From Thalassobaculaceae bacterium (GTDB taxonomy: Bacteria > Pseudomonadota > Alphaproteobacteria > Thalassobaculales > Thalassobaculaceae), in contig OZ245843.1 of assembly GCA_965228875.1 (NCBI GenBank), positions 3,082,616 to 3,146,615 on the forward strand: a stretch of 64,000 nucleotides of DNA. Reading direction: 5' to 3'. Position numbers and translations under genes: made by a program. Below are positions 8,241 through 27,775 of the stretch, piece after piece. Under the pieces are notes generated by a model. That model was not told the DNA's origin. It searched no databases and worked only from the letters and a program-made list of their open reading frames with translations. Numbering within the stretch: position 1 is the stretch's first letter; every line of letters starts with the position of its first letter.

Positions 8241-9925
8241 GCACTCCTGATCCGATCACCACCGAGATCGTCTTCAACGCGCTGCAGTCGGTCGCCGACG
8301 AGAGCTTCGTCGCGCTGATGAAGAGCGCCTATTCGACCAACATCAAGGAGCGGCATGACCATTCCACCGCCATCGTCGACCGCGACGGGCGGCTGGTGGT
8401 GCAGGCGGCGAACTCGATCCCGATCCACCTCGCCTCGATGCTCGGGCTGATGCAGAAAATCCTGGCGAAGTACCCGGTCTCGGAGATCCACGAGGGCGAC
8501 GTGTTCTGCGCCAACGACCCGCACGTCGCAGGCGGCACGCACCTGCCGGACGTAAATCTGGCCATGCCCGTGTTTGCGGAGGGGGAACTGGTCGGCTTCG
8601 TGTGCAACATCGCGCATCACGCCGATGTCGGGGGCATGTCGCCCGGCTCCATGGCCGGCGGCATGACGTCGATCTACCAGGAGGGACTGCGCATCCCGGT
8701 CATCAAGCTGTTCCGCCGGGGCGAACTCGACCGCGACCTGTTCGACCTGATCCTGTTGAACGTGCGCGTGGTGGAGGAGCGCCGGGGCGATTACAACGCC
8801 CAGTTCGCCGCTCTCCACCTGGCGCACCGCCGTCTGCTGGAGATCGTCGCGCGCAACGGGCGAGAGACGGTGGAAGCGGTGTTCGACGGCATCATCAGCC
8901 GCACCCATGCCCGCATGAAGGAGAGCATCGCCGCCATCCCCGACGGCACCTACGCCTTCGAGGACTTCATGGACAATGACGGGGCGGGTATCGACGACGT
9001 CAAGATCGCCGTGACCATCACCATCAAGGGCGATGACGCGGTCTTCGACTTCACCGGCACCGACGCCCAGGTCCCCGGCAACGTGAACATTCCGCTGAAC
9101 GGCACGCTGGCGGCGGTGTGCTACGTGTTGAAGGCGATGCTGGATCCGGAGATCCCGAACAACCACGGGGTCATCGACGCGGTGACGGTCACGGCCCCGC
9201 CCGGCACGGTGGTGAGCTGTGTGGAGCCGGCCTCGGTCGCCTCCCGGGCCCATACCTCGCAGCGCATCGTCGACGTGGTGATCGGCGCCCTGGCCGACGC
9301 CCTGCCGGACAGGGCGGTGGGGGCGGCGAACGGCGCCAACTCGATGGCGATCTTCGCCGGGACCGACCCGCGCTCGGGCCGGCCCTACGTCTACCTTGAG
9401 ACGCTTGGAGGAGGATTCGGCGGCCGTAACGACCGCGACGGGAAGGACGGGGTGCAGGTTCACATCACCAACACCTCCAACCTGCCGGTGGAAGCGATCG
9501 AGATGGAGTACCCGCTGCTGGTCGAGGCTTACGGCCTGATCGAGGATTCCGGCGGGGCCGGCACCTGGCGCGGCGGGCTGGGCCTGAAACGCGTGGTAAC
9601 GCCGGTCGATCACGACTGCGTCTTCACGGGCATCGGCGAGCGTTTCCGCCACCAGCCCTGGGGCGTATTCGGCGGCCAACCGGGCCAGACCGGCCATTTT
9701 GCCGTCCGGACCAAGGAGGGCGAGACCCGGGACATGCCGACGAAGTTCGGCGACGCGCCGCTGCGCCAGGGCGACAGCGCGATCGTCGAGACCCCGGGGG
9801 CGGGCGGCTACGGTCCGCCGTCAGGGCGTGCCGCCGAAACGCTGGCGGAGGACTGGGACTCGGGCAAGTTCTCCCCGGACTTCATGCGCACGCACTATGA
9901 CTGGGAGCCGCCGGCCAGCGCGTGA
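8237..9925 (+). CDS. Hydantoinase B/oxoprolinase subunit
   Basis: SAYSTNIKERHD, NDPHVAGGTHLPD, HHADVGG, IYQEGLRIP, DSGGAGTWRGG, ETPGAGGYG; ATGA overlap with subunit A. Confidence 0.96.
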   Translation: MSTPDPITTEIVFNALQSVADESFVALMKSAYSTNIKERHDHSTAIVDRDGRLVVQAANSIPIHLASMLGLMQKILAKYPVSEIHEGDVFCANDPHVAGGTHLPDVNLAMPVFAEGELVGFVCNIAHHADVGGMSPGSMAGGMTSIYQEGLRIPVIKLFRRGELDRDLFDLILLNVRVVEERRGDYNAQFAALHLAHRRLLEIVARNGRETVEAVFDGIISRTHARMKESIAAIPDGTYAFEDFMDNDGAGIDDVKIAVTITIKGDDAVFDFTGTDAQVPGNVNIPLNGTLAAVCYVLKAMLDPEIPNNHGVIDAVTVTAPPGTVVSCVEPASVASRAHTSQRIVDVVIGALADALPDRAVGAANGANSMAIFAGTDPRSGRPYVYLETLGGGFGGRNDRDGKDGVQVHITNTSNLPVEAIEMEYPLLVEAYGLIEDSGGAGTWRGGLGLKRVVTPVDHDCVFTGIGERFRHQPWGVFGGQPGQTGHFAVRTKEGETRDMPTKFGDAPLRQGDSAIVETPGAGGYGPPSGRAAETLAEDWDSGKFSPDFMRTHYDWEPPASA

Positions 9926-10104
9926 GTCAGGCGTCGAACCACGGCATCGCGGACAGCGATGACGATGTCGAAGACCGGTGCGATCACGGCACCGATCGCC
10001 GCCGCCACCTCCGCCGGCATGGGTGTCTGCGGAAAGGCGGTGTTCCAGGCCCACGCGACCAGCACCCCGGACCCGACCGTCGCACCCGTGACCGCGCCCC
10101 TCAT
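9895..10104 (-). CDS. Small two-TM protein, holin-like
   Basis: 69 aa with two hydrophobic segments (GSGVLVAWAW; PAEVAAAIGAVIAPVF); last gene of the cluster; overlaps the hydantoinase B 3' end. Confidence 0.5.
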   Translation of the reverse strand: MRGAVTGATVGSGVLVAWAWNTAFPQTPMPAEVAAAIGAVIAPVFDIVIAVRDAVVRRLTHALAGGSQS

Positions 10105-10203
10105 CGCCCCACCGCCCCGACCGTAGCGAGGGACCGGTGAACGGGGCGTGGGCCGGATAGTGTGCAGGTCATGGTCGACCTCCTGGTTGGAAAGGGGGTG
10201 CCG

Positions 10204-10410
10204 TCAGCCCGGGACGGGCAGGTTGAGAAGCGCCACCAGCCCGCCAAGCACGGACAGCGCGATCGCACACAGAACGCCGAGCAGAAACGCCTCGATCCGC
10301 CCGACCCGCCGCTCGAGCTCCCGCAACCTGTAGCCGGACAACGCCCCATCGGCCGACCGCCCGGAGCGAGCCCGCTGAGCGAACCGCGCGATGTCGTAGT
10401 CGTGCTGCAT
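10204..10410 (-). CDS. Small coiled-coil plus single-TM phage membrane protein
   Basis: LRELERRVGRIE then FLLGVLCAIALSVLGGLVALL; GGAGG RBS before ATG 10410. Confidence 0.6.
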   Translation of the reverse strand: MQHDYDIARFAQRARSGRSADGALSGYRLRELERRVGRIEAFLLGVLCAIALSVLGGLVALLNLPVPG

Positions 10411-10448
10411 CGGACTCTGACCTCCAGTCGGAAATGGCCTGATCGGCG

Positions 10449-11429
10449 CTATCCCCATTCAACGACAAGTAGCGCATCCCCACCGAAACCTCGGTGATTG
10501 AAGATGGCTCCTCCACCCCCTCCACCACCACCAAGGCCCCCATCTTCACCACGGCTGTTGAACAGACCACCGCCCCCGCCGCCAAACGTGCCGCCTGCGC
10601 CTCCATCGCCGTGGCCGCCCCCGCCGCCGGCTCCGTATTGCGCGTCGAGAGGGTCGCCGGTGATGCGACCTTCGGACCCGTCGCCGGTGTTGTGGAACGA
10701 TGCGCCGCCGGGTTGCTGGCCCCGTCCGGGAGCGTCGACGATCGCCGGCGTGATCGCGCCGCCACCGCCGCCATGGGCGTCGCCGGCGTCCCCGCCATCC
10801 CCGGCAATACCGCCGCCGCCGGCTCCGTACCGACCGAGTGCATTGCCTCCGTTGCCGCCCGGTCCGAAATACGCGCCCGCTCCGCCGCCGCCACCACCGC
10901 CCCGCTCGTTACCGACCCCGCCGTTGCCGCCGGAGCCGCCGGTCAGGTTGGTGTCGCCGCCTGAAGCCAGCCCTCCCGCGCCGCCCGCCGCCCCGGCCGC
11001 GTTGGCGCCGGCACCCGCCACCATCGCGATCCCGAGGACCGCACAGGACAAGGTGGAGTCCTGACCGCTGCCGCCCGCAGCCAGGTCGATCGCGAAGGAG
11101 ACCGCGTCCAGGCCGCCGGTCCGGTAGACCGTCTTGATACAGGTTCCACCGCCGCCGCCACCGCCCGAACTCGTGCCGCTGCCGGAGACATCGGCATCGC
11201 CGCCGGCGCCCACGAGGTAGAAGCGGATGACTTCGGTACCGGCCGGAATCGCGGCATCCGAGATCCGCCAGGACGGCGTCGACGTCGTGACCTCGGCATG
11301 ATTTCCCCAGGGAGAGGCCGCGAAGACCTTTGCGGGAATCCCGGCGCCACCGGCCCGGGATCGGGCTCGGGAACCGGAGGACAGGCCGCCCGACGGGCCA
11401 GCACCTGACGGTGGATGAATTCCGAACAT
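10449..11429 (-). CDS. Glycine-rich tail fibre/receptor-binding-like protein
   Basis: VGAGG...GGGGGGG...C-terminal GFGGDALLVVEW pattern of phage Gly-rich domains; AAGGAG RBS. Confidence 0.75.
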   Translation of the reverse strand: MFGIHPPSGAGPSGGLSSGSRARSRAGGAGIPAKVFAASPWGNHAEVTTSTPSWRISDAAIPAGTEVIRFYLVGAGGDADVSGSGTSSGGGGGGGTCIKTVYRTGGLDAVSFAIDLAAGGSGQDSTLSCAVLGIAMVAGAGANAAGAAGGAGGLASGGDTNLTGGSGGNGGVGNERGGGGGGGAGAYFGPGGNGGNALGRYGAGGGGIAGDGGDAGDAHGGGGGAITPAIVDAPGRGQQPGGASFHNTGDGSEGRITGDPLDAQYGAGGGGGHGDGGAGGTFGGGGGGLFNSRGEDGGLGGGGGGGGAIFNHRGFGGDALLVVEWG

Positions 11430-11478: not shown

Positions 11479-11904
11479 TCAGTAGTCGGCGCCCAGCGCC
11501 TCGACGATCATCTCACCGCCCGACACACCGACGGCGATGGCGAAGCCCAGGCGCGCATCGCCCGGGAGGTCGAGGTAGCGTGCCGGATCGTCCTGATCGA
11601 CGACCGACGTCCGACCGCCGTTCACCGTTGCCGCGTCAAAGGTATGTGCCGGAACCAGCGCATCCAGATGCGGCAGGTAGGTCCAGCTCGCGCCGCCGTC
11701 GGCGGACAGGAAGAATCGGACCGCGGTGTCGGCGACGGTCGCGGTGGCGCCAACATACAGGCCGGTCAGCCGCGTTCCGTTGGGGCCGGCCACGATCGCC
11801 GTCGCGATCGTTCCCGAGCCGTTGGTGTTGAGGTTCGCGACCGACGTGCCGGCGGCCTCGTAGCGCGGCGTCTGCGGCCATGCGGGTGTGTTGGTCAGGG
11901 CCAT
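11479..11904 (-). CDS. Phage tail-associated hypothetical protein
   Basis: 141-aa beta-rich ORF in the tail-tip region. Confidence 0.7.
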   Translation of the reverse strand: MALTNTPAWPQTPRYEAAGTSVANLNTNGSGTIATAIVAGPNGTRLTGLYVGATATVADTAVRFFLSADGGASWTYLPHLDALVPAHTFDAATVNGGRTSVVDQDDPARYLDLPGDARLGFAIAVGVSGGEMIVEALGADY

Positions 11905-11985: not shown

Positions 11986-12501
11986 TCAACCGGAGAGGGC
12001 GTAGGCCGTGCCAAGGGTCACGGCGTAGCTCTGCAGGTTGGCGGTATTGGTGATTGCGTGACCCTGGGCGTCGAGATCGGCGCTCAGACTTGGCGCCGGG
12101 TCCAGTGCGAGCCCCCGCACCGCCATGAACGGGTGTCCCACGACCCACGCATCGGCGGTGCCGCCACTGGCGATCGCAACGTCGAGTTCGAGCGTGGTGC
12201 CGGCGAACGACGTGACGGTCCCGAGCATGTAGACGGTCACGTCCGCGGCAGCCGCGACCCGAACCATCGTGCCGACCGGCAGACTGCTCTCGCCGGACTG
12301 CTGATGGGTGGTCAGGATGCGCGCGCCGGTCTGCGCCACCAGGGTGGAGGTCGATGTCACATAGATCCCGGCGATCGATCCCGCCGCTTCCGCCGTCGCC
12401 TGGAGGATGGCCGGCAGTCCGTTCTCCTCGTCGGCATAGGCGTTCCCTTCGACATTGGCTTGCGTGAAGGTGCGTCCCGCGAGCGTTACGCTCCAGGCCA
12501 T
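11986..12501 (-). CDS. Phage tail-associated hypothetical protein
   Basis: 171-aa Ala/Thr-rich ORF with AGGAG RBS. Confidence 0.7.
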   Translation of the reverse strand: MAWSVTLAGRTFTQANVEGNAYADEENGLPAILQATAEAAGSIAGIYVTSTSTLVAQTGARILTTHQQSGESSLPVGTMVRVAAAADVTVYMLGTVTSFAGTTLELDVAIASGGTADAWVVGHPFMAVRGLALDPAPSLSADLDAQGHAITNTANLQSYAVTLGTAYALSG

Positions 12502-13424: not shown

Positions 13425-14942
13425 CTACCCCCATAGATCCAAGGCGATCTCATTCATCGCCGAGTCCTCGACCATGCCGACGATCACCAGATTTCGCCCG
13501 GTCCGCAGCCCGTGCCGGGGGTAGACGAGCGTGACCGTCTGTCCGAGTTCCAGCGCGAAGGGCTGGGTCTTGACCAACACCCGGAAAGCGACGCGGCCGG
13601 CCCCGAACAGGGTCAGCAGCCGATTGGCCTCCGCCGCAGCGTCCGCCGGATCGACGAGCAGGGTGGAGACCACGGCCTCTTCGGCCAACGGGTGGCGCTG
13701 GCGCACCGCCTCGTCCTCCGCCGCCTCCACCCGCACCGGCTCCGCCAGGTCCGCGCGCGCCTCCTCGCCGACGGCGCCGGCGATCGCGCCCGCATCCAGC
13801 GTCCGCCAGTACCGCCGGTACTCGACACCGTGTCGCCAGACCGGTCGCGCCAGCGCCAGACGCTCGATCTCCAGGATCTGGGTTTCGTCGAACCGCGCCG
13901 CACCGACCGCGGCCGGCGGCTCCACGCGCCCGATCGTCAACCGGCCGGACCGGTCGAACCCGTAATGGGCGCCGATGCTGTCGGCCAGCGCGTCGAGAAC
14001 TTCAGCCAAGGAACGCCCCTCGCGCACCCAGACACCGGCGACGGCGCGATGGCTGGCGTCGAACGCGGCGAACCCCGCGGCATCGACGTCCAGGGGAGAC
14101 TGTACCGTCGCCCGCGTCGTCACCAGGCGCCGGATCAGGGCGGCGACCGTCTCGACATAGCCGTCGGCGGTCCGGTCGCCGCGCACGTCCGCGGTCACCG
14201 TGCCGGCGGCCGACGCCCCGAGAGTGAACAGGCCGGCCGCGCTGTCGACCGCGAACTGCCCGGCGGACGGCACTCCGGACACCTTGGTCAGCGCCAGCCC
14301 GGAATCGTACACCGTGTCGACATCCTCGATGGCGCCGTCATGAACCTGGTAGGTCAGCGTCGACGGATCGACCAGGATCGCCGGCACGTGATGCACCCTG
14401 CCGAAGGTCAGGGGTTTCTCCCTGTCCTTCAATCCGCTTCGGCCATCCAGGCCGCCGGTGCCGCCGTAGATGCCGCGCCCTATACCGGCCTCGAACCAGG
14501 ACTGGAGATCGCGCAGCCGGATGGTCACGGTCTCGTCGTCGTACTCGAGCCCGTCGGCGGTACCGTCGAAGATCGTGGCGAACTCCGCGTAGGCAAACCC
14601 TTCGCCGCCAAGCAGGACCCGGACCCGGCGCCCGTCGAAGGCCAGCGCGGTCATCGCGTCGAGCCCGCCATCGGCGTTGTTGAGCATCAGCGTTCCGACC
14701 CCCGGAAAGGAACGACCGGACAGACGTCCGCCGGCGAACAGCTGACGCTCGAAGTTCAGCGCCGAGAGCAGTCGCGCGTCGAAATGGGTGTCCGGCGGCA
14801 CGTCGTCCGGCGCGGTGACGAAACCGTCGTCGCTGAAGTGGAACGTCACCGTCACCCCGACCACGGGGTCGTAGGGTTCGACGATCACAAGATACCGTCG
14901 ACGGGCGTGGGTGTCGGCGATGAGATCGTCGAAGGCGCTCAT
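13425..14942 (-). CDS. Putative tail tip/hub protein
   Basis: KPLTFGRVHHVPAILVD, YQVHDG, VYDSG motifs; ATGA-coupled to the tape measure gene. Confidence 0.7.
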   Translation of the reverse strand: MSAFDDLIADTHARRRYLVIVEPYDPVVGVTVTFHFSDDGFVTAPDDVPPDTHFDARLLSALNFERQLFAGGRLSGRSFPGVGTLMLNNADGGLDAMTALAFDGRRVRVLLGGEGFAYAEFATIFDGTADGLEYDDETVTIRLRDLQSWFEAGIGRGIYGGTGGLDGRSGLKDREKPLTFGRVHHVPAILVDPSTLTYQVHDGAIEDVDTVYDSGLALTKVSGVPSAGQFAVDSAAGLFTLGASAAGTVTADVRGDRTADGYVETVAALIRRLVTTRATVQSPLDVDAAGFAAFDASHRAVAGVWVREGRSLAEVLDALADSIGAHYGFDRSGRLTIGRVEPPAAVGAARFDETQILEIERLALARPVWRHGVEYRRYWRTLDAGAIAGAVGEEARADLAEPVRVEAAEDEAVRQRHPLAEEAVVSTLLVDPADAAAEANRLLTLFGAGRVAFRVLVKTQPFALELGQTVTLVYPRHGLRTGRNLVIVGMVEDSAMNEIALDLWG

Positions 14943-17900
14943 GCCGCCCTCCCCGCGCCACGCGATGCGGCGACCACACGTTCCAGTCCCCGACGCAGGG
15001 CGACGTTGTCCGTCCGCATCGCCGCCAACGACGCGGTCATCCGGCGCACCTCCTCGATCAGTTCCGTCAGGCCCTCGTCGTCGCCGGCACCGAGGCCGCC
15101 GTCGTTGGCCGGCCGTGCGATCGTTACCGGGATCGACCGGCCGTCCGGCAGCGGGACAAAAGCTTCCGGCAGGCGCCCCTCCCCGAACAGGGCAAGCTGC
15201 GGGGTGTCGGCGACGCCGCCTCCGCCGTAGACCGAAAGCGGCAGCGGTCCACGGTCCGTCATGATGCCGCCCGCGGCGAACGGCACGGTCTGTTCCAGCA
15301 GATCGACGGCACGGTTGAGGTCGTCCGAGAGTCCCGCTCGGAAGGCGGAGAACCCACCGCCGCCGAAATCGCCGCTGTAGCCCGTGAGACGGGCGATGAT
15401 GCGGTTGCGGGTCGGCGCGAAACCGAAATCCGCCTCCGGATTCGGCAGCCCGGCCACATCGCCCGACAGGTTGCGGGCGATTGCGCGAAGCTCCTCGAGC
15501 TGGGCGCGGGCGACATCGAGCTGCTGCTCGGCGACCGACTGGGTGCCGCCGAGCGCCGCGTCGACCGTATCGAAGATCCGGGCGTAGTCCTCGGTGCTGG
15601 CGTAGAAACCGCGGGCCAGCTGAAGATAGTCCTCGGCCGCCGCCCCGAGCTCGAGTTGCGCCTCCTGGTCGCCGTCCGCCGACCGCCGTGCCAGGGCCTC
15701 AAAGAAGCGCCACGCCTCGTCGAGCTGCTCGGTCGGCGACAGCGTCGAGAGGCTCTGGTCCAGCGCGATCCGCCGGCGCGTATCGGAAATCGTCGCGACC
15801 ACCCGTTCCGCGATGCCCGCCAGGCTCTCCTGCTCCTTGATCTGACTGGCGAGTTCCTGGGTGGCGAGACGAGTCGCATCGGCCAGGGTCAACTGCGCCG
15901 CCGCGTTGTCGTTGGCCGCCCCCAGGCCGACATCGAGTGCCGCGGTCAGCGCCTCCAGCACGAGGGCGTTGTCGGCGAAGGCCGTCTGCAGGCCGTCGAT
16001 CAGAGCGGGCGTCAGCGCGGACGGATCGAACAGCGCCGTCAGATCCTCCCGCAGCACCGCGTCCAGCCCGGAAAGATCGGTGACGCCGAGCGCGGCGCCG
16101 AGCCGGCGGCGGTCCTCGTGATCGGCGAGCCGGTCGGCGATCTCGTCGATCAGGCCGAACCCCTGGCTCTCGCGAACCTCCCGGTCCAGGTCGCCGGTGA
16201 AGTCCTGACCCAGCTCCGCGAAGACGCCCTGAACCATATCGCCGATGGGCCCGAGCGAGGTGAAGGAGCCGCCGAGGGCGTCGATCAGGCCGGCCAGGTC
16301 GTCGGTCCCTTCCAGCAGCGCACCGATCCTGAGCCGGAAGAGCTCCTCCAGGTCGGAGAAATCGGTGACGCCGATGGCGATGCCGTCGTCCCGACGACCC
16401 TCGTACGCGTCGGCAAGGTCGGCGAGGTCGTTTTCTGCCCCGAACCCTCGCGCCTCGCGCAGCTCGTCCGCGATCTCCTCGCCGTAGTCGGCGCGCAGCT
16501 GCTGGACGAGACGCCCGCTCGCTTCCTCGACCCTGGCGGCGACGTCGATCGCGGCGACACCCAGATCGGGAAACGCCTCGGTCGCCGCGGCGATGTCGTC
16601 ATTGATGCGCTCGAGCTCGGCCTCCATCGCCTCGAGGGCGGCCGTTCCGGCGAGCAGCCGTTCCTCGAACGGTCCGACCGCCTCCGGTTCGAACGCCCCG
16701 GCAACGGCAGCGATCAGTGCGTCGACATCCGCCAGGGCGATCGCGAAGGCGTCGCGCACCCGATCCCGGTTGTCGAGATAGTCCTGGCTCGGCCCGGTCG
16801 CCGCCTCGGCACTCTCGGCCAGGGCGTCGATGCCGGTCACCAGGTCCCGCAGCGCGTCGTTGGCGATGGTCGCCCCCTCCGGCGTCAGCACGATCGTCCC
16901 TTCACCCGCCGGCTCCGGGCGCAGGACCGACCCCTCGTCCTGATAGGCGCTGTTGTCGAACCGAAGCGTCTGCCCGGCGACATCGAGACCGATCAGGGTC
17001 CCTTCCCGCTCGTCGTAGACCGGACCGACGCCGGGCTGGAACGAGCGGACACCCTCGTCCTGATGGAAGAGCAGCGTGCTGTCGGTGCCGGGGACCGGGG
17101 TTCCGATCGCACCGACATCCGCCGTCTCCTGCGGGACCGCCACGTGCGGAGCGGGATCGGCGGGAAACAGCGTGGTCACCCGCTCCAGGAAATCGCGGAT
17201 CGCGCCGATGCCGTCGGCGGCAAGCGACCTTCCGGTCTCCTCGATCTCCCGCCGCTGGCGCTGCAGAGCCACGGTGTAGGCGTCAATTCCGTCGCCGGCC
17301 TGGTTCAGGGCGTCGCGCAGGGCACCGAAACGCTCGGCGAAGGCCAGGTCGTCGAACAGCTCCTCCAGGCTCCCGGCAACCGAATGCCGGGCCGCTTCGG
17401 CCACCTCCGCGACGTCCATATCCTCCAGTACCTCCTGGACGATGAACCGCACGGCCTCGGTGATCAGGTCCGCCTCGCTCAGCCCGCGGAACCGGTCGCT
17501 GTCCTCGGCATGGGCGCCGATTATGGCCTTGAAGTTGTACCCGCCGCCCTGCCCGGACCCGTCCTCCGGCGCCGGGAAGTAGCCGATGTCGAACCCGTTG
17601 CCGTTCAAGGCGCCGCCGAAGCGCGAGCGGAACCGATCGATCTCCTCGAAGATCGTCTCGACGGTGGCAACCAGCGCGGCCGGATCGCCGCCGTTGTCGG
17701 TTGTGTAGACGGCATCTCGCGTCGCCGGCGACACCCGGGCGACGGTGGTCGGTCCGACCGACGGCGAGCGGGCGAACAGGACCGGGCCGAGGACCTGCGC
17801 GACAGCGGACGCCGCCGCCAGATAAGGGTTGGCGGCGGCCAGCAGCCCCGACCCACCACCAAGGATACCGCCAAGCGGACCGCTGCCCGAGACGATATCG

Positions 17901-19312: not shown

Positions 19313-20482
19313 TCAGGCGGCGAACCGGTCGATCTGAAGCGTGCAGCCCGTCGCGCTGTCGCGCAGGGCCTGGAAGTCGAAATCGGCCATGACGTCGCGG
19401 TCGTTGCCGCCGGCCAGCACGCGGCCGCCGGTGAGCTTCACCTTCGGCAGGGTCACGACATAGGCGTTGCCGTCGCCGTCCTGGACCCGGAACGACAGGG
19501 ACGTCGCGCTCCCCGCCAGGTACTTCTGGTACCAGGCGCCGTCCGAGAAATAGACCGACACGCTGCCGGTGACGGAACAGCGTCCGGCCCCGATGTCCAC
19601 GTTGCCGAGAGCTCCGACGGCCTGGATACCGCGCAGCCCGTTGGCGACCTGCACGGAGAGCGAGCGCAAGGCGGTCCCGGCCAGGACCGCGCCGGCCTCG
19701 CGGACCTCGCCGATGTTGTCGACCGCGTTCATCACGTCGTGGGTCGGCGCCGCGATCGGCGCGCCGCTGCCGACGGAGGCGTCCGCGATCGCCGCCGACC
19801 GCCCGAGGAAGGAGACCGACCCGCGCAGCACCTGGCCGGTCTGGATATCGAGACTGAGTGTGTTCGCCACCATGCCGGTGAAGGCGATGTGCTTGCCGAT
19901 ATCGGTGAACGCCTTCTCCAGGGTGAAGGAACTCTCCGTCACCCCGTTCCGCAGGACCGTTCCGTCGATCGCGACGGTCAGGCCGGATGCGGCTTCGTCG
20001 GTGACGGGCGACGGCGACACGGCAACGCTGTTCGCAGTCACGCCGGTCACCTGGTAGAAGCCGTTGTTGGCGCCACCCGCGGCGGCGAAGCCCGTGACCC
20101 GCAGCCACTGTCCCGCGACGATCCCGGCCGCCACGAAGTCGGTGACCGTACTGGTGAAGGTGCCGCCGGCATTGGAGGCGGCGATGTCGTCGGCCACCGA
20201 GATGGCCACCGGCGTGCCCCATTCCGAGAACAGCGCGCCGGCGAGGAACGGGTCGTGGGCGCCGTAGCTCAACTCGAAGTCGACGTTGCCCGACGCCTCG
20301 GCGCCGACCTGGATCAGGTCCATGACCTGCCGGTCGGAGCGGACCTCGTTGCTGGTCACGTTGCTGATGTTGTAGCCGAGGGTCTCGGCGGTATAGCGCT
20401 GCTGGGTCATCGCCGAGACCGGCGTCGTCCCCCAGACCGTCTCTTTCAGGCTGTAGAGCTGTGCGCGACTGCTGTCGGCCAT
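19313..20482 (-). CDS. Major tail tube protein
   Basis: ETVWGTTP, SNEVRSDRQ, SFTLEK, GRCSVTGSVSVYF, DGNAYVVTLPKVK; AAGGAG RBS. Confidence 0.88.
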   Translation of the reverse strand: MADSSRAQLYSLKETVWGTTPVSAMTQQRYTAETLGYNISNVTSNEVRSDRQVMDLIQVGAEASGNVDFELSYGAHDPFLAGALFSEWGTPVAISVADDIAASNAGGTFTSTVTDFVAAGIVAGQWLRVTGFAAAGGANNGFYQVTGVTANSVAVSPSPVTDEAASGLTVAIDGTVLRNGVTESSFTLEKAFTDIGKHIAFTGMVANTLSLDIQTGQVLRGSVSFLGRSAAIADASVGSGAPIAAPTHDVMNAVDNIGEVREAGAVLAGTALRSLSVQVANGLRGIQAVGALGNVDIGAGRCSVTGSVSVYFSDGAWYQKYLAGSATSLSFRVQDGDGNAYVVTLPKVKLTGGRVLAGGNDRDVMADFDFQALRDSATGCTLQIDRFAA

Positions 20483-20605: not shown

Positions 20606-20965
20606 TCAGCGGCGGACCTGCAGACGGAAGACCGCCGGCCGGTCGCCGGCATAGGTCGCCGTCACCGAGACCACCCGGTAGACGGTGCCGGCGACGATCA
20701 GGCCGTCGCCGGGCGCGGGTTCGATCGCAAGGTGCCGGGCGGCGACCGTGACCATCATGTCGCCGCGGCGCACGGTCCCATCCGGCAAGCCGGATTCGAC
20801 CGCGTCGACGACGCCGTTCAGGTTCGTGTCGACCGTCGTCGCGGTCACAAGCCCGGTCTGCGGATCGTAGCTCGGCACGCCGTCGCGCCTGAGCGTGAGC
20901 GCGGTTCCTGACCGTCCGATCACGCCGGCGGCCATCGCCAGCAGGGTCTCGAGCGGGCGACTCAC
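20606..20965 (-). CDS. Head closure/head-tail joining protein
   Basis: GTG start overlapping upstream TGA; YDPQTG, VRRGD, GDGLIV, FRLQVRR pattern. Confidence 0.7.
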   Translation of the reverse strand: MSRPLETLLAMAAGVIGRSGTALTLRRDGVPSYDPQTGLVTATTVDTNLNGVVDAVESGLPDGTVRRGDMMVTVAARHLAIEPAPGDGLIVAGTVYRVVSVTATYAGDRPAVFRLQVRR

Positions 20966-21432
20966 GCGCGCCTCACGTCGGCGGAGCTGCGGCGGCGGAC
21001 GAGGCCCGAGAGCAGCAGGTCGACATAGGGGTAGATCCGACCGCCGGGCGCGTCGTCGGCGTAGCGGATCTCGATCGAGCCCACGCGCTCCGCCACGATC
21101 CGCCCGCCGCGCTCCGCTTGCGGCGCGAGATCCTGGGACAGGGCGATCCAGGCGAGCTCGGCGCAGGCATGCCGGACGGACGCGGGGATGCCGCCATGGG
21201 TTCGGCCCTCGCCGTCGACCGCGCCTCGGCGCGGCCAGCCGAGCGGCTGATCGGTGGCGGCCAGGCCCCCGATCCAGCGATGGTTGCCGTCGAGATAGAC
21301 GGTCGCCTTCAGCAGGGCGGCCTCGCGTTCGGCGGCGGAGGCCTCGGCCCAGGACGCCACGTTGCGCGCGGCGAAATAGGCATCGGCCTCGGCCAGATCG
21401 ATATAGACGTCGATGCCGGCGGTCACGGTCAT
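20962..21432 (-). CDS. Head-tail adaptor (DnaT-like phage family)
   Basis: YIDLAEADAYF, EAALLKATVYLD, QPLGWPR, IPASVRHACAELA, VGSIEIRY. Confidence 0.8.
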   Translation of the reverse strand: MTVTAGIDVYIDLAEADAYFAARNVASWAEASAAEREAALLKATVYLDGNHRWIGGLAATDQPLGWPRRGAVDGEGRTHGGIPASVRHACAELAWIALSQDLAPQAERGGRIVAERVGSIEIRYADDAPGGRIYPYVDLLLSGLVRRRSSADVRRA

Positions 21433-21882: not shown

Positions 21883-23037
21883 TCAGCCGGCGATGCGTAC
21901 GGCAAGCTCCGGGCGGACCAGCTTGACGCCCCACAGGACGTCGAACTCCCAGACCGTCTGCTTGTACTGGCGACTGACCTCCAGACGCAGGGACAGGCCG
22001 GTCTGGGCGTCTGTCATCGCCAGGATCCGGTTGCCGAGCGACAGGTCGGCGAGCCCGGCGGACAGCGGCCGCATCGCCAGCGCGAAGGCGTCGCGGTGGA
22101 AGGCGAGGTTGACCACATGGCTCTTGCGGACGGTGACGGCGACGCCGCCCGCGACATCCGTCCTCAGCGCCGGCGTCAGGCCGACGCTGGTGCTTCCGGT
22201 CGACAGGCTCACGCCCGCGGTGACCGCGTAGGTCTGGTCGTGACCGGCGAAGGAAAGCACGTCTCCGGCGACCAGGGTCGGGGTGCCGGTATCCGCCGTC
22301 AGCGGGACCGCCGCGCTCCCGCTCGAGATCCCGGCGGTCGTGGTCACGGTGTAGCTGGCGTCGTCGGCGGCACTGCCGGCGGTGTGGACCGGCACGCCGT
22401 CATCGGCGAACCAGTCAATGCCGAACTTGCGGCCGATCTCGCCGTCGATCTTGACCGCGGCCGATCCGGCCTTCTCGGCGTCGGAGAACTGGGCCAGAGC
22501 GAGGGCGTTGGTCTCGGCGTCGAAGTCGAGGACGCCGCGACGGTCCGCCCGCGGGGCGAGCTGCCGGTTCAACAGCTTGCGGGCGAGCGTCGCATCGGCC
22601 ACGTCGGCGGCGAACGGCGTGGCGCCCGCGGTCCCGACATAACCATAGATGCCGACATATTCGGCATGGACGCTGGCGTTCACCGCATTGGCCAGGGCCC
22701 GGATCGCCTCCGACATCTGCATCGGCACGAAGGCCGCGTCATGGTCGATCTCCATGACCTCGCGGTCGGTCAGGTGGAAGCCGGCGCGCTTCCAGTTGTC
22801 GAGCCGAACCTGGACGACATTCGCGGCCAGCGAGGTCGGCACCGGCGGCGTGTTCGACGGGGTCACGTCGGTCGCCGCGATCGCGCTGGGCAACGGAACG
22901 TCGATCGTGTCGCCCTTCTTGGCGGCATCGGACGAGTAGTCCGAGTTGACGAGGCGGGGCATCACCGCCTGCTCGCGCAGCGCCATGAGGCCGCGCGCCA
23001 GGATCTTCGGCATGATGTCGGTTAGCGTGTTCGCCAT
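21883..23037 (-). CDS. Major capsid protein, P22 gp5 coat-like
   Basis: MANTL, LVNSDY, KKGDTIDVP, IGRKFGIDW, NLAFHRDAFALAMRPL, FDVLWGVKLVRPELAVR; AAGGAG RBS. Confidence 0.9.
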   Translation of the reverse strand: MANTLTDIMPKILARGLMALREQAVMPRLVNSDYSSDAAKKGDTIDVPLPSAIAATDVTPSNTPPVPTSLAANVVQVRLDNWKRAGFHLTDREVMEIDHDAAFVPMQMSEAIRALANAVNASVHAEYVGIYGYVGTAGATPFAADVADATLARKLLNRQLAPRADRRGVLDFDAETNALALAQFSDAEKAGSAAVKIDGEIGRKFGIDWFADDGVPVHTAGSAADDASYTVTTTAGISSGSAAVPLTADTGTPTLVAGDVLSFAGHDQTYAVTAGVSLSTGSTSVGLTPALRTDVAGGVAVTVRKSHVVNLAFHRDAFALAMRPLSAGLADLSLGNRILAMTDAQTGLSLRLEVSRQYKQTVWEFDVLWGVKLVRPELAVRIAG

Positions 23038-23241: not shown

Positions 23242-23817
23242 TCACGCCACCCGAACCCGGCCGGCGGCGATGTCGGCGACGTGGCGGGCGACGGCGCGGG
23301 GGTCGGAGGCGGAGACGGTGACAGGCGCCGCCTCGCCCCGGCCCGCCACCGGCGCGCCGCTCCCTGACTTCCCGGACGCCTCGAAGGCACGGCCGTAGAC
23401 GGGGTCGGCGCGGATCGCCTCGACGACCTGGGACACGGCAAGGGCGGTCCCGTCCTCGCTCCGCGCGGCGACGGAGCCGTCCTCGGCCACCGACAGGCGC
23501 GCAGTCACCGCCGGCAGCAGCAGCTCCGGAACGCCGTGGGCGGCCCGGATCGCCGCGCGGGCCTCGGCTTCGATCAGGCGGGTCTCCAGCGTTCCGGCGC
23601 GGTCCGTGCCGGCTCCGCTTGCCTCCTCGCGCGCCGACAGTTCGGCCTTCAGCGCCTTGCGTTCGGCCCGCTCCTTCTCCAGCGCCGATTTGAGGCCGGA
23701 AACGTCCTCCACCCCGTCGGCGTCGAGCCGCCAGCGTCCGTCCTCCGTCTCCACGTAATGGGCGCGTACCGGCTCGGGCAGGTCGTCCAGGGCGTCGGCG
23801 ATCGCGGGAAGCGGCAT
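23242..23817 (-). CDS. Capsid scaffolding protein
   Basis: LDDLPEPVRAHYVETEDGRWRLD, DVSGLKSALEKER, FEASGKSGSGA; lies between portal and capsid. Confidence 0.8.
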   Translation of the reverse strand: MPLPAIADALDDLPEPVRAHYVETEDGRWRLDADGVEDVSGLKSALEKERAERKALKAELSAREEASGAGTDRAGTLETRLIEAEARAAIRAAHGVPELLLPAVTARLSVAEDGSVAARSEDGTALAVSQVVEAIRADPVYGRAFEASGKSGSGAPVAGRGEAAPVTVSASDPRAVARHVADIAAGRVRVA

Positions 23818-23849: not shown

Positions 23850-25205
23850 TCATCGGGGCATGTCGGCGAGGATGCCGCGGCGGCGGATCTCGGCGAGGAA
23901 AGTCTGACGGTCGATCTCCCCGGCCAGGCGGGTCCTGAGCAGGAGGTCGATCTCCTCCGCCTCGCGGGCGTCGAGACCGACATCGGCATCCAGGGTCACC
24001 CGACCGGCGGCGGTCGGGTCGAGGTCCATCCACCGGGCGGCCAGGCCGAGGGCTCGACTCAGACACTCCTCGACCTCGCGGACCAGCCCGGCGAGCGCGC
24101 TGTCGGCCCGGGCGGCGTCGATCGCCCGCTCGGTCGCCGTCACGCCGCCGGAGCGTCCGACCAGAAGATCGAGTCCCATCACCGCCATCCGGTCCTCCAG
24201 ATCCGCGAGGTCCTGACGGCCGGCCGCGATGGCCGCGCCGGAATGCTCGACATACCGCAGGTCCGCCCCGTCACCCTCGCCCAGGATCAATCGGTTCGGG
24301 CCGATCTCTACCCCGTCCTCGCCGACCTTCAGGTTGCGGGCGAACAGGATCGGCACCCGGGCGACATGCAGGATGTGGCGCTGATCGGAACTGGACTGCC
24401 AGTGCGCCAGGTTGAGCCAGGCGAGATCGAGCAGCGGCGGTCGGGCGGTCAGAAACCCGGTGCGCCCGGCATAGATCGTGACCAGCGGAATCTCCGCCAG
24501 GCTGGTCTCGCCGCCGGCGACGCGACGCCACGGCAGGTCGTCGCCGTCTCCAGGCCGGCGCCAGACCGACCAGCGGCCGGGTTCGAGCACGCGGATCTGC
24601 GCCACCGCCTTCTCGCCCCAGGCCCCGTCGCGTTCGACCACGGTCTCGCGGATACGGACCCGCTCCAGGGCACCGTCGCCGCCGATCCGCCAACCGATCA
24701 GATCGCGCGCCGGCACATGAACGAGATAGGGCCGGGCGCCGCGCTCGCGCTCGTCGTGCAGGGTATCGAGGTCGCCACCGGCCGGCGGGAAATCGACGAG
24801 AAGATGGGTCACGCCATCGCTCAGCGCCGCCCGAAGGATATCGCGGGCCAGCGTCGTCAGGTCGCGACCGCCCATGTCGAGGTCGCGGCAGAGGGCACGG
24901 ACCCGCGGGTCCGCGTCGTCGGACAGGCTGGCCGGGCGGGCGAAGGGTTTGCCGGACAGCGTCTGGACCGCCCGGCCGAGACCGTTGAACAGCACCGTCC
25001 GCGACAACCGGATGCGGTAGGCCTCCAGGCTCTCCTTCGGCTCGCGCGGCAGCCAGCGTTCGCCGGCCGCCCGCATCGCCCGGGTGCCGCCCAGCAGGTC
25101 GTGCACCAGTTCCCAGTCGGGGGCCATGGCGTGCCAGGCGGCGCCGGGCGTGGCGACGTCGGCCGCGCCGGCGGCCGAGGCGGATGGGTTCGCGCGGTGT
25201 CTCAT
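23850..25205 (-). CDS. Portal protein (DUF4055 type)
   Basis: LLGGTRAMRAAGERWLP, AYRIRLSR, PPLLDLAWLNLAHWQSSSD, YVEHSG, TATE. Confidence 0.88.
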   Translation of the reverse strand: MRHRANPSASAAGAADVATPGAAWHAMAPDWELVHDLLGGTRAMRAAGERWLPREPKESLEAYRIRLSRTVLFNGLGRAVQTLSGKPFARPASLSDDADPRVRALCRDLDMGGRDLTTLARDILRAALSDGVTHLLVDFPPAGGDLDTLHDERERGARPYLVHVPARDLIGWRIGGDGALERVRIRETVVERDGAWGEKAVAQIRVLEPGRWSVWRRPGDGDDLPWRRVAGGETSLAEIPLVTIYAGRTGFLTARPPLLDLAWLNLAHWQSSSDQRHILHVARVPILFARNLKVGEDGVEIGPNRLILGEGDGADLRYVEHSGAAIAAGRQDLADLEDRMAVMGLDLLVGRSGGVTATERAIDAARADSALAGLVREVEECLSRALGLAARWMDLDPTAAGRVTLDADVGLDAREAEEIDLLLRTRLAGEIDRQTFLAEIRRRGILADMPR

Positions 25206-25221: not shown

Positions 25222-25587
25222 TCAGGGATGGTCGGGTCCGGCGTCCCACTCGACCGGGATGCGGACGGACGCGATCAGGCTGGCGCCGTCGGAGCGCAGG
25301 TCGGTCACCGGCGGCCGAACCGCGAGCCGGGGGCCGCCGGCGCGGCGCAGAGCACCGATCAGCCGTTCCGCGCCGCCGAACGCCAGGTCGGCGCTGTCGG
25401 CCGTCAGTCCGATCAGCAGCTCGGTCCGCCGGCGCACCATCAGTCGGTCGCCGGACCGCAGCAGCAGGGTCGCCGACGCGCTCAGGACCCCGCGGCCGGC
25501 TCCCCAGACCATGCTTCCGACGGCCGGGCTTTCGACGGCCGGGCTTCCGACGGCCGGGACCTCGACATCCAAGGCCCGAAAGCTCAC
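25222..25587 (-). CDS. Hypothetical protein
   Basis: 121-aa ORF overlapping the upstream stop (GTGA); contains a 5-aa tandem repeat. Confidence 0.55.
   Translation of the reverse strand: MSFRALDVEVPAVGSPAVESPAVGSMVWGAGRGVLSASATLLLRSGDRLMVRRRTELLIGLTADSADLAFGGAERLIGALRRAGGPRLAVRPPVTDLRSDGASLIASVRIPVEWDAGPDHP
25513..25557. repeat. Three tandem 15-bp units GCTT(C/T)CGACGGCCGG
   Basis: Read directly; encodes PAVGS-PAVES-PAVGS on the minus strand. Confidence 0.9.
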
Positions 25588-25982
25588 CGGAACGCGTCGT
25601 GCCAGAACGGCGCGGCGACCCGCAGGCAGAAATAGGCCGGGTCCTCGGGACCCGGATAGGTGCTCGCCGCCTCGAACGTCAGGCCGGGGACACCGGCGCC
25701 GGCGAACAGGCCGGCGACATCATCCGCCAGGCGCAGGGCGCCGGCGGTCCCGCTGCCGGCGGCGACGCGGACCTCCACCAGCGCGACACCGGTGCAGCGA
25801 AACCGCCGCAGGTCGCCGCCGAACGACGCCTGGGTCGCCCCCGTCGGCTCGACCGCAAGGCGCACCCAGGGACCGCCATGGGCCGGCGGCGTGAAATCGA
25901 CATTCGGGTAGGCGACCGCCGTCGCCGACCAGCCGGCGGCGAACAGGCTCTCGATCGCCGCGCGCGCCTCGTCCAGGGTCAT
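25584..25982 (-). CDS. Tail terminator-like protein (DUF4128)
   Basis: VAYPNVDFTPP, PWVRL, GSGTAGALRLAD; AGGAGG RBS. Confidence 0.78.
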   Translation of the reverse strand: MTLDEARAAIESLFAAGWSATAVAYPNVDFTPPAHGGPWVRLAVEPTGATQASFGGDLRRFRCTGVALVEVRVAAGSGTAGALRLADDVAGLFAGAGVPGLTFEAASTYPGPEDPAYFCLRVAAPFWHDAFR

Positions 25983-26010
25983 TGTCGCCTCCTCGGCATG
26001 TTGGCCGGCC

Positions 26011-27357
26011 TCAGATCAGAAACTCGCGGCTTTCCGCCGGCGCCGGGTCGGTCATCAGGGCGGTCACCGCCCAGACCAGCGCGTCCAGCCGGTCCGGTGA
26101 GGCCTCGCCCGAAGCGCCGGTGAAGCCGGTCATCTGATCCTCCAGCGCCTCGAAGGTGCCGGCGTGGCGCACGCGGCCCTGCTCGTAGAGCGCGGCGACG
26201 GGCTCGGCGCGCACCCGCTTGCCCCGCGTCGCCCGCACGCCGCGGACCGGCAGGGCGGGATCGACGGTGCGCAGGGTCGCCGCCACCAGATCGCCGCCCT
26301 GGTTGACCTCGCAGATCACGCAGTCGGCGCGGTGGCGGGCATGGGCTGTCGCCGCCCGCCGGGCCCACAGATCGGGACTGAGCCTGGCCGACAGATCCTC
26401 CAGCACCCAGAATCTGCCATCGCCGTCGCGGCCGGCGACCACGATCCCGGTCTCGTCGGCCGTCTCGCCGCTGGTCACCGCCGGGTCGACGGCGACCACG
26501 ATCCGGGCAAGATCGGGCACCGCCGCCGGCGCGACCCAACACCGCTCGACCGCGGCCCTCGTCCACAGCGCGCCCGGCATGTCGACCAGGTATTCGCCTT
26601 CGATCTCCTGTCGCCCGAGCCGCGTGCCGTCGTAACGGGCCAGAATCTGCGCCAGGAAGGCCGGCGCCAGGTTGGCGGCGTTCTCCCGCGTACCGCCGCG
26701 GGTGACGACGGTGCGCGGATCGGCCATCAGCCGCGACAGCCAGGCGCGCGGCTTCGGCGTCGTCGTCGCGACGCAGCGCGGGTCGGAGCCGAGGCGCAGG
26801 CCGAGCATCAGGTTGTCCCACGCCGCCTCGCGGCGCCATTTGGCGATCTCGTCGGCCCACGCGGCATCGAACTGCGGACCGCGCAGCTGATCCGGATCGT
26901 CGGCCGAGAAACAGGTCGCGACCGCGCCGCCGGGCCAGGTCACCCGCCGCTTCGACGGCTCGTAGCGCGGCCGGGCCCAGGGCGGACAGCAGGACAGCAG
27001 GCCGCTCTCCCCCTCGACCATGACGTCGCGGACATCGGCTGCGGTCTCCCCGACCAGCGCGATCCGCCCGGCCCGACCGGTCTCGGCCAGGTGGCGGACC
27101 CATTCAGCCCCGGTCCGGGTCTTGCCGAAACCGCGGCCGGCCAGGATCAGCCAGATCCGCCAGTCGCCGGCCGGAGGCAACTGCTTGTCCCGAGCCCAGA
27201 GCGGCCAGTCGTGCAGCAGATGGGCGGCGTCGCGGTCACTCATCCCCTCCAGCAGGGTCCGGGTCGTCGCCGGGGTCGTCGCCCTCTCCCGGATCAACCT
27301 GCGCAAGGCGCTCGGCGAGCGCGTCGCGGGCTCCGGCATAGTCTTCGGCGGTGTCAT
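26011..27357 (-). CDS. terL: Terminase large subunit (RcGTA/Terminase_6-like); true start may be 27339 or 27243
   Basis: QLPPAGDWRIWLILAGRGFGKTRTGAEW, LRGPQFDAAWADE, TTTPKP, VVAVDP, EVNQGG, SPDRLDALVWA. Confidence 0.93.
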   Translation of the reverse strand: MTPPKTMPEPATRSPSALRRLIRERATTPATTRTLLEGMSDRDAAHLLHDWPLWARDKQLPPAGDWRIWLILAGRGFGKTRTGAEWVRHLAETGRAGRIALVGETAADVRDVMVEGESGLLSCCPPWARPRYEPSKRRVTWPGGAVATCFSADDPDQLRGPQFDAAWADEIAKWRREAAWDNLMLGLRLGSDPRCVATTTPKPRAWLSRLMADPRTVVTRGGTRENAANLAPAFLAQILARYDGTRLGRQEIEGEYLVDMPGALWTRAAVERCWVAPAAVPDLARIVVAVDPAVTSGETADETGIVVAGRDGDGRFWVLEDLSARLSPDLWARRAATAHARHRADCVICEVNQGGDLVAATLRTVDPALPVRGVRATRGKRVRAEPVAALYEQGRVRHAGTFEALEDQMTGFTGASGEASPDRLDALVWAVTALMTDPAPAESREFLI

Positions 27358-27724
27358 CGCTCTCCCCGGTGCTGGGATTCAGCCCGGCGCGCTCGCGGTA
27401 GAGGTCCGGACGGTGGGCGCGCAGCAGAAACATGAGCAGGGTGTCGGAGTACTTGCGGACCGTGCCCGCCACCCTGCCCTGGTGGAAATGCGGAACCTCG
27501 ACCCCGTCGATGGCGCGGCGGCGGGCCTCGGCCGCCAACGCGTCGGTCGCTGTCTCCAGGGCCTCCGCCCATTCGGCGGCGAAGTCCGGATCCTCGGCCC
27601 TGAGCTGGTAGGCGCGGGACCGCGAGGCCTTGGCGGCGCGGGCGGCATGCGCGACGTTGCCCGAGGTCGCGAGCGCGGTCAGGAAGGTCGCGCGCCGCCG
27701 CGACGTCCAACGGTGAACGGGCAT
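27236..27724 (-). CDS. Terminase small subunit
   Basis: FLTALATSGNVAHAARAA HTH, DPDFAAEW, EARRRAIDG, KYSDTLLMFLL; GGAGGAG RBS before ATG 27724. Confidence 0.82.
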   Translation of the reverse strand: MPVHRWTSRRRATFLTALATSGNVAHAARAAKASRSRAYQLRAEDPDFAAEWAEALETATDALAAEARRRAIDGVEVPHFHQGRVAGTVRKYSDTLLMFLLRAHRPDLYRERAGLNPSTGESDDTAEDYAGARDALAERLAQVDPGEGDDPGDDPDPAGGDE

Positions 27725-27749
27725 CGGCTCCTCCGGGTCTGGAACGCGA

Positions 27750-27775
27750 ACAGGCCGCCCGGAGGGGCGGCCTGT
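27750..27775 (-). terminator. Perfect 11-bp hairpin in the terS leader (terminator/attenuator-like)
   Basis: ACAGGCCGCCC-GGAG-GGGCGGCCTGT. Confidence 0.55.

Follow-up and report, generated by a model that had tools for sequence, protein, structure and literature searches.

The chromosome of a Thalassobaculaceae bacterium (genome G000, a single contig of 4.96 Mb with a GC content of 0.678) carries an intact siphovirus-type head-tail operon, which lies at w9895-27724 on the minus strand of the 64,000-nucleotide stretch analyzed here (G000:C1:3082616-3146615; hereafter the window, whose positions are prefixed with w). Judged by its distribution and molecular evolution within the family, this cluster is very probably domesticated, vertically inherited, and under selection. 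That the whole would work as a gene transfer agent (GTA)-like "viriform" of the Thalassobaculaceae, with packaging of host DNA included, has in our estimate an even chance of being right. The features of GTAs that comparison can reveal are present: the phage-derived head, tail, and packaging genes lie on the chromosome, and the element is not self-transmissible, is vertically inherited, and is maintained by selection. A preliminary description of this DNA had proposed a domesticated particle cluster, and the proposal is supported by synteny, congruent phylogeny, low ratios of nonsynonymous to synonymous divergence (dN/dS), and the lack of phage modules past a mobile island that adjoins the operon.

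We detected the coat gene in 13 of 41 genomes, G000 included. Within the genus (g1; the other genera sampled are numbered g2, g3, etc.), 6 of 10 further species have it, with 85-88% identity; so do 6 of 14 other genera of the family, with 70-78% identity, and it was found in none of 16 genomes of other families. In a wider sample, 22 of 61 family genomes carry the element (22 of the 43 of good quality), with a single copy per genome; the carriers are Thalassobaculum, Nisaea, strain BAL199, and metagenome-assembled genomes (MAGs). One IMG/VR viral contig of 19,850 bp corresponds to essentially the whole element. Syntenic conservation, proposed as a check in the preliminary description, extends to the same gene order in seven genera and the same host flanks in three. 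The order common to the carriers fetched is S24 repressor, DUF6362 gene, small terminase (TerS), large terminase (TerL), and so on to the tape measure and tail tip. It is identical in 7 genera (G001, G005, G006, G009, G012, G015, G019, G098, G105, G121, and G091) and in 13 of 27 genome-contig loci, all 13 of which belong to the Thalassobaculaceae. The w5492/HyuAB flank and the S24-HyuA_R flank recur in genera g1, g3, and g10, and relatives that lack the island (G001, G005, G009, G012, and G019) have host genes directly at both sides of the element.

The distribution is not patchy and strain-specific, an outcome that the preliminary description had named as speaking against domestication; it is instead structured by clade. 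We built an RpoB tree from 40 of the 61 sampled family genomes, the remainder having no RpoB locus retrieved or only fragments of it, and rooted it on g79. All 20 carriers placed in this tree fall into one clade of 31 rows (SH-like approximate likelihood ratio test, SH-aLRT, 88), and genera g79, g12, g13, g14, and g5, which are without the element, lie outside it. By parsimony on the same tree, the fewest changes that explain the distribution are nine, for example one gain and about eight losses; 4 of 500 shuffles gave a number as low.

The genes of the cluster share the history of their hosts. A tree of six cluster genes (TerL, portal, coat, tube, phrog_8917, and chaperone) from 18 loci, with seven carriers not included, has the topology (g6, g10, g2, (g11, ((g9, g3), g1))), in which the nesting of genera matches that of RpoB, and G000 is basal within g1 in both trees. 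Synonymous divergence (dS) between G000 and four same-genus genomes (Nei-Gojobori method, NG86; G015 and G019 not included) was 0.5-0.8 in coat, TerL, portal, tube, and scaffold, compared with 0.4-0.9 in most flanking genes, and 0.7-1.9 in the tail-end genes. The vertical phylogeny anticipated in the preliminary description is thus seen both in the agreement of the trees at the genus level and in a core dS equal to that of the host flanks. The low dN/dS that it anticipated was also found, at 0.1-0.5 across the cluster genes: 0.12-0.18 for coat, 0.17-0.21 for TerL, 0.16-0.19 for portal, 0.16-0.23 for tube, 0.25-0.42 for the tape measure, and 0.25-0.52 for Hc1, the worst gene of the cluster, with 0.07-0.24 in the flanks; all of these are rough values, as dS is partly saturated, and for G012 nearly saturated. 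In 15 of the 17 loci compared in relatives, every one of fourteen core genes that the contig reaches is an open frame of full length; the exceptions are G008 and G001. RpoB is 83-90% identical among the carrier genera. The −1 slippery site of the tail assembly chaperone gene, A_AAA_AAC at w18805-18811, from which the −1 frame continues into a Phage_TAC_18 domain, has an unchanged codon position in the chaperone genes of all 16 relatives compared, whose genomes have about 70% GC. Congruent trees, host-like dS, purifying selection, and the kept slippery site together therefore exclude neutral decay and recent infectious spread.

The operon consists of one unbroken series of genes, called from lists of open reading frames (ORFs) and plots of GC at third codon positions (GC3) and named by Pfam and PHROGs. 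By these calls, w9895-27724 holds 18 ORFs of phage structural or packaging type and no others. The operon of about 18 kb and the genes for DUF6362 and the S24 repressor make up an element of about 19.5 kb, the island excluded. Its features and the island, in window positions, are as follows.

9895-10104, minus strand: sm69, a small membrane protein of 69 aa and the final gene of the operon, with one strong hydrophobic segment (KD19 2.48)
10204-10410, minus strand: sm84, a small protein with a C-terminal membrane helix (KD19 2.61); likely start ATG 10410, with GGAGG ahead of it
10449-11429, minus strand: Gly-rich ORF of 326 aa, a variable accessory gene without a family; its GC3 frame signal is ambiguous and its reading frame less certain
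11479-11904, minus strand: u141, a conserved tail-end protein, with no Pfam or PHROGs family; 59-68% identical in same-genus genomes
11986-12501, minus strand: u171, a conserved tail-end protein without a family, in 7 genera with 35-67% identity
12565-13434, minus strand: tail-tip protein, phrog_8610 (E 1.3e-60), conserved in all full loci
13425-14942, minus strand: tail-tip protein, phrog_8917, 505 aa (E 1.1e-108)
14939-18430, minus strand: tape measure protein, 1163 aa (phrog_1292, phrog_16823)
18446-19206, minus strand: tail assembly chaperone pair; G-like ORF 18751-19206, T-like frame ending at 18446
19313-20482, minus strand: tail tube protein (Phage_tube_2, E 3.1e-48; phrog_290); ATG 20482 with GAAGGAG upstream
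20606-20965, minus strand: head closure protein Hc1 (phrog_161, E 3.3e-17); GTG start 20965
20962-21432, minus strand: head-tail adaptor Ad1 (DnaT_2, E 2.9e-32; phrog_477)
21883-23037, minus strand: major capsid protein of P22-coat type (P22_CoatProtein; phrog_283, E 3.7e-80)
23242-23817, minus strand: scaffolding protein (phrog_206, E 2.3e-21)
23850-25205, minus strand: portal protein (DUF4055, E 1.6e-40; phrog_145, E 1e-116)
25584-25982, minus strand: tail terminator (phrog_179), displaced to a place between TerL and portal
26011-27357, minus strand: TerL (Terminase_6N/6C; Pfam, tree, and motif checks)
27236-27724, minus strand: TerS, 162 aa from ATG 27724 (phrog_4044, E 1.3e-39; weak Sf6_terminase match)
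27725-27847, minus strand: operon leader (5'), containing a perfect GC hairpin of 12 bp; its upstream end marks the point of island insertion
27848-64000, continuing to w93296: Tn7-like island (G000:C1:3110463-3175911), 65,449 bp, GC 0.582

The TerL, DUF4055 portal, scaffold, P22-like coat, tube, and 1163-aa tape measure named in the preliminary description are all on the minus strand. Its open frames, good ribosome-binding sites, and frameshift signal are confirmed by the GC3 plots, by GGAG-type ribosome sites ahead of all starts checked, and by the heptamer with the Phage_TAC_18 domain that follows it. The metabolic operon without an integrase that it placed beside the cluster is the hydantoinase operon on the left (HyuA 6189-8240, HyuB 8237-9925). 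Two of its statements need correction: TerS begins at ATG w27724, so that the cluster does not extend to 27775, and the GC content of 0.711 is above the genome mean, standing at the 99.2nd percentile of 2474 same-size genome windows (mean 0.678). Raised GC has been reported for GTAs. The restriction to morphogenesis genes holds inside the window, but DUF6362 and the S24 repressor, past the island, belong to the element as well. Pfam and PHROGs scans of the cluster and the post-island region identified no integration or replication genes in the element.

Among the tail-end genes, sm69 is 74-81% identical in four same-genus genomes and 69% identical in G012; it has no family match in Pfam or PHROGs and is, from its hydrophobic segment, a holin-like candidate. 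The gene for sm84 is conserved in genus g1 and in G012. The Gly-rich ORF, possibly a fibre, is not at the corresponding place in G001, G005, G006, and G009, and G012 has only a 65-aa match. The tail terminator stands beside TerL in g1, g3, g6, g9, and g11 and at its usual place, between Hc1 and tube, in g2 and g10 (e.g. G019, G098, G105, and G121); judged from gene order, this shift is an internal rearrangement that became fixed.

Some intervals of the operon hold further sequence. Between coat and Ad1 (w21453-21725) there is a possible 90-aa ORF with a GTG start at 21725, for which Pfam and PHROGs gave no family match and whose frame GC3 favors only around w21800. The 378-nt gap between portal and tail terminator (w25206-25583) contains a putatively coding ORF of 121 aa (25222-25587) with a PAVGS-type repeat, and in-frame deletions of 15 and 30 nt were seen in this gap among metagenome strains. 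In genus g3, some 3 kb of additional DNA lies between tail terminator and portal, and one locus has as much as 5 kb. In G001 and G004, a PhyH-like gene lies on the opposite strand between scaffold and coat.

In G000, the operon is separated from its regulators by the island. The island has termini of the form TGT..ACA and a 5-bp target duplication, AGTGA. Its TnsB, TniB, and TniQ genes lie at w28038-32860; the transposase combines rve and Mu-transpos_C, there are two TniQ genes, and TnsA was not identified in a family scan of the island. We class the island as Tn7-like by its TnsB-type transposase, TniB ATPase, TniQ, termini, target duplication, and fixed attachment site. Near-identical contigs from four metagenome studies span w22000-27848 and diverge exactly at w27848, and because none of them has the island, its insertion is strain-specific. 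G006 has a different, related element at the identical point (TniQ 38%, TniB 55%, and TnsB 46% identical), indicating that this junction is a dedicated attachment site. Past the island, at w93363-94663, are the DUF6362 gene, on the strand of the cluster, and the divergent S24-peptidase repressor, followed by a hydantoinase, an M20 peptidase, a GNAT protein, and other host genes. We found no integrase, replication, or lysis modules in this region, where the preliminary description had suggested looking for them. The insertion lies about 20 nt downstream of the promoter −10 element and upstream of the leader hairpin. In G000, the operon is therefore 65 kb from its promoter. The tnsB-tniB-tniQ genes read toward TerS, and read-through from them into the operon is possible but unproven.

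The sole conserved intergenic block between DUF6362 and TerS, present in 13 genomes of 7 genera, is GGAAAAAA..GCTTTACA-N17/18-TAnAAc. A promoter scan recovers this conserved site in G000 and gives five promoter-like sites in the region scanned, for a shuffle mean of 0.2. In genus g1, the promoter is followed downstream by the GC hairpin, a ribosome site, and TerS. The AlphaFold2 (AF2) model of DUF6362 has seven helices (pLDDT 88), and its best whole-length match in VIA-align is Q21, with Z 10.0 and a root-mean-square deviation of 3.0 Å over 115 of 150 residues, a Z that helical proteins can reach by chance; sequence identity in this structural alignment is 6-9%. The C-terminal half also matches sigma region 4 with Z of about 8 in VIA-align. 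DUF6362 had a single match in phage records, in a 25-kb Ralstonia phage. Pfam searches with DUF6362 and S24 at E <= 5 gave nothing further, and an NCBIfam profile search of the cluster and regulator proteins gave only a TerL domain below threshold and a weak match to an S24 regulator. On the strength of the model, DUF6362 has about even odds of being a Q-like regulator. The succession of regulator gene, promoter, hairpin, and terminase genes, together with the S24 repressor, suggests that DNA damage would relieve the repression and that the operon would then be transcribed with the help of DUF6362. Next to the S24 start, in the S24-DUF6362 intergenic region (L001:5822-5874), the motif AATAA(A/T)TTTCCTATTG is common to g1, g2, and g3 and is a possible operator.

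In the mechanism that we propose, the divergent S24 repressor, of the CI/LexA type, would hold DUF6362 off until DNA damage led to its self-cleavage, upon which DUF6362 would be made. This small helical protein, similar in its predicted fold to Q21 and sigma region 4, would act at the conserved promoter just downstream of its own gene, and RNA polymerase would pass the leader hairpin and transcribe the 18-kb operon. TerS and TerL, of a headful-type terminase subfamily, would fill P22-type capsids with chromosomal DNA, and long tails (1163-aa tape measure) would join the heads. The two small membrane proteins, together with unlinked lysis functions, would release the particles, which would bring host DNA to related cells. 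More tentatively, a siphovirus with a large head and a long tail might have been domesticated independently, and across the family, into a gene-transfer particle. Its switch would be a minimal circuit of two genes, for an S24 repressor cleaved in the SOS response and a Q-like DUF6362 antiterminator, at the one conserved promoter, and the promoter-leader junction would have come to serve as the dedicated attachment site of a family of Tn7-like islands able to silence the particle genes and precede their loss.

The cluster is not a member of the RcGTA type (Rhodogtaviriformidae; Rhodobacter, Dinoroseobacter, and Caulobacter). Like that type, it is an alphaproteobacterial chromosomal cluster of head-tail genes only, inherited vertically with occasional loss, and its TerL is of the same Terminase_6 subfamily, which true phages share. 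Unlike it, the cluster has a DUF4055 portal, a scaffold, and a P22-type coat in place of the HK97 portal, S78 protease, and HK97 capsid of RcGTA; its tube is of the Phage_tube_2 family and its tape measure has 1163 aa, against Phage_tail_2 and about 200 aa there. A DUF2460/BR0599 tail module is missing, and the regulators are encoded next to the cluster. In the genome of G000 itself, we obtained no matches to PF05065 (HK97 capsid) or PF09343 (DUF2460), with a positive Caulobacter control, and G000 therefore has no RcGTA-type cluster.

The preliminary description had called the terminase RcGTA-like, which is correct for its subfamily and motifs; the resemblance is not specific to GTAs, true phages being equally close. 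DUF2460 genes occurred in 9 of 61 class-level genomes, and five of these loci were compared: TerL is 51-59% identical, over about 93% of its length, to the TerLs of four of the five. Two loci (L066 and L069) were verified by Pfam as RcGTA-type, with TerL, Phage_portal, S78, Phage_capsid, Phage_tail_2, a short tape measure, and DUF2460. TerS has a partial likeness to one RcGTA-type locus (40% over 99 residues). The nearest phage TerLs are those of Microcystis phage Mae-JY09 (59.7%), a Desulfofustis phage (53%), and Brevundimonas phages (52%). The TerL motifs quoted earlier are present, and they occur as well in RcGTA-type L066 and in phages Mae-JY09, CRP-6, and Polewnik. Since true phages have them, they mark a TerL subfamily and not GTAs. 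A TerL tree against RcGTA and phages, another of the checks proposed, confirmed membership in the subfamily and left the placement within it unresolved: in 17 rows, the TerLs of the Thalassobaculaceae group together (93/96) within a radiation in which RcGTA-type and phage TerLs are not resolved. With this polytomy, an RcGTA origin of TerL is unproven.

The head and tail have their relatives elsewhere. The coat is 47-49% identical to those of its nearest phages, with genomes of 56-77 kb, and the phage matches of phrog_8917 are only Azospirillum phage Cd (32%) and EBPR siphovirus 2 (29%). Among known phages, the cluster comes closest to siphoviruses that combine a P22-type coat and a DUF4055 portal (the Vibrio phage SSP002 group; coat 47-49%) and, for the tail tip, to Azospirillum phage Cd (29-32%), but these are replicating phages of 49-77 kb, none of which shares the whole module or the TerL of the cluster. 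No replicating phage with the whole module was found in the phage and viral-contig collections searched. Loci of Sneathiella and others with 52-58% coat identity were rejected as carriers, having only coat, portal, Ad1, and tube in common with the cluster, as were IMG/VR contigs at <=62% coat identity, which share few head genes. Elsewhere in the G000 genome there is a second Terminase_6N gene (G000:C1:2237688-2241356, E 8e-11) with a 547-aa open frame, possibly of a prophage. A locus of an unrelated alphaproteobacterium (G071, C3:33000-49000) has a DUF2460 gene together with a portal and an Ad1 that are 29% and 45% identical, respectively, to those of the cluster, and mixed architectures therefore exist.

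Several observations weigh against a domesticated GTA-like element. About eight losses are needed on the RpoB tree, and the flanks differ in g2 and g6. In G013, of sister genus g4 (G013:C1:4856000-4871000), HyuB_L lies about 120 bp from HyuA_R and the entire element, S24 and DUF6362 included, is without trace. G003 (C22) and G007 (C34), in which the coat was not found, have kept HyuA_R, S24, and DUF6362 on contigs that end 0.6-1.9 kb further on, so that in these two genomes the regulators outlive the structural operon; by eye, the contig end in G003 looks like a transposase gene. An internal deletion has removed Ad1 to phrog_8917 in G008, and the tape measure frame of G001 has only 683 aa and is perhaps broken, although this genome is a MAG and an assembly error is possible. 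Repeated loss and the states of G003, G007, and G013 indicate that the element is dispensable. Its loss may follow insertion at the promoter-leader site, and in G000 the native control of the operon has probably been lost. Control appears to lie with phage-type regulators encoded by the element, S24 and DUF6362, and not with host regulators as in RcGTA. The Q-like reading of DUF6362 rests on a Z of 10 for an all-helical protein, in the chance-prone range, and Foldseek against the Protein Data Bank (PDB) gave no match at E <= 0.001 (Q21, E 0.75). In the leader, a consensus scan for a terminator was negative, the hairpin fails the rule, and the z-score of the leader fold is −1.09. Pfam and PHROGs detected no endolysin in the cluster, and unlinked lysis genes were not searched for. 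The TerL tree shows no specific grouping with RcGTA-type TerLs. Finally, with 56-77 kb genomes in the nearest phages of the coat, the head may have room for more DNA than the 19.5 kb of the element; this would conflict with the classic rule that the genes of a GTA do not fit into its own particle.

The last point touches the definition of these particles. In its accessible part, PMC9953437 describes a GTA as a viriform whose particles package mostly random host DNA, are smaller than typical phage particles, and cannot hold the whole locus that encodes them, with genes spread over several loci and induction by host regulators under stress or starvation. The kinship of the coat with phages of large genomes therefore calls for caution on this classic small-head definition, as far as that part of the source gives it.

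The comparative data do not separate gene transfer from killing as the selected function. A PBSX-type killer or altruistic-lysis particle, kept for killing or competing with related strains or for another host function, with DNA transfer incidental, is a reading that we regard as unlikely, although it has several points in its favor: control by an SOS-type repressor and a long-tailed particle resemble PBSX-like defective prophages, and evolution is fastest in the tail-end genes, with a variable Gly-rich gene among them, as expected in receptor arms races. PBSX itself is called a GTA-like element that packages 13.4-kb chromosomal fragments in the accessible part of PMC12946183. Killing alone, however, needs no packaging module, and TerS, TerL, and portal are selected as strongly as the tail genes; searches of Pfam, PHROGs, and NCBIfam matched no PBSX family. 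It is rather improbable that packaging is anchored, as in lateral transduction, with a pac site in or near terS from which successive one-way headfuls would take up the element and its neighbors. The lack of excision and replication genes in the element and a TerS of a DNA-binding-type small-terminase fold family (phrog_4044, weak Sf6_terminase match) would fit such a process, and coat relatives from phages of 56-77 kb imply that one headful could exceed the element. Against this, no pac site has been recognized, the yield in the absence of in-situ replication would be one headful series per chromosome, and the TerL subfamily includes RcGTA-type clusters, which are reported to package without sequence specificity. 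The introduction of PMC12946183 covers the mechanism of lateral transduction.

The repeated losses, the partial deletion in G008, and the invasion of the promoter by mobile elements in G000 and G006 are what a functionless cryptic prophage remnant that has not yet decayed might show. Such a remnant is very improbable, because about 18 ORFs are open with dN/dS of 0.1-0.5 at dS of 0.5-0.8 and across genera whose RpoB is 83-90% identical, all 16 genomes compared, of about 70% GC, have retained the A7 slippery run, and the promoter block stands out as conserved from surroundings that are not. Orthologue dS is also not far below host dS, which argues against recent transfer. Least credible, and extremely unlikely in our judgment, is a working temperate phage with its integration, replication, and lysis modules elsewhere or cut away by the island. 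It would account for a phage-type repressor with a late-regulator-like gene and for the listing of one genome's region by IMG/VR as the 19,850-bp viral contig. Island-free relatives, however, have host genes directly at both sides, the trees are congruent, the locus is fixed with one copy per genome, and no phage or viral contig has the whole module above 62% coat identity.

A domesticated, GTA-like cluster can also be compared with known systems beyond the RcGTA type. PBSX, of the Bacillus defective prophages, likewise has a fixed place on the chromosome, control by a repressor, genes for a tailed particle and for terminase, and no replication. PBSX is a contractile-tailed particle of another phylum with no detectable sequence relation to the cluster, which has a siphovirus-type tube and tape measure and no sheath. 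In the late switch of lambdoid phages, the Q antiterminator, PR', tR', and the late operon follow one another. The element has a similar series of small regulator gene, conserved promoter, leader hairpin, and terminase/structural operon; unlike the lambdoid switch, it has no DUF6362-Q21 sequence similarity (6-9% in structural alignment) and no canonical terminator by scan. Anti-termination control has been described for CcGTA (10.1101/2023.11.12.565669, accessible part).

Few GTA lineages are listed in the accessible parts of PMC12946183 and PMC9953437: the RcGTA type, BaGTA, those of Brachyspira, Desulfovibrio, and Methanococcus, PBSX-like elements, and a recent gut element; the same parts describe the sequence-based discovery of new GTAs as hard. 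We found no description of the element or of a Thalassobaculum GTA, of DUF6362, or of a GTA with DUF4055 in the literature searched, outside which most subscription journals fell. The cluster is a candidate with the full comparative signature (fixed locus, co-phylogeny, host-like dS, and purifying selection) and with a head and tail unrelated to RcGTA. It occurs in culturable marine bacteria, namely Thalassobaculum sp. OXR-137, T. fulvum KCTC 42651, T. litoreum, and Nisaea acidiphila, can serve to test whether GTA-like domestication needs a small head, and offers a simple regulatory model. The locus also provides a case of mobile islands that target a domesticated virus.

G002 and G010, reduced genomes of 1.5 Mb in the same GTDB genus, are without the element, and G006, which carries it, is a 4.99-Mb MAG labeled Candidatus Endolissoclinum. 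The cargo of the Tn7-like island is defence-like: it includes a RES/Xre toxin-antitoxin pair, two HNH_2 genes, AAA ATPases, a DUF2357 protein, and an SF1 helicase fused to an MTES_1575/DUF559 nuclease.

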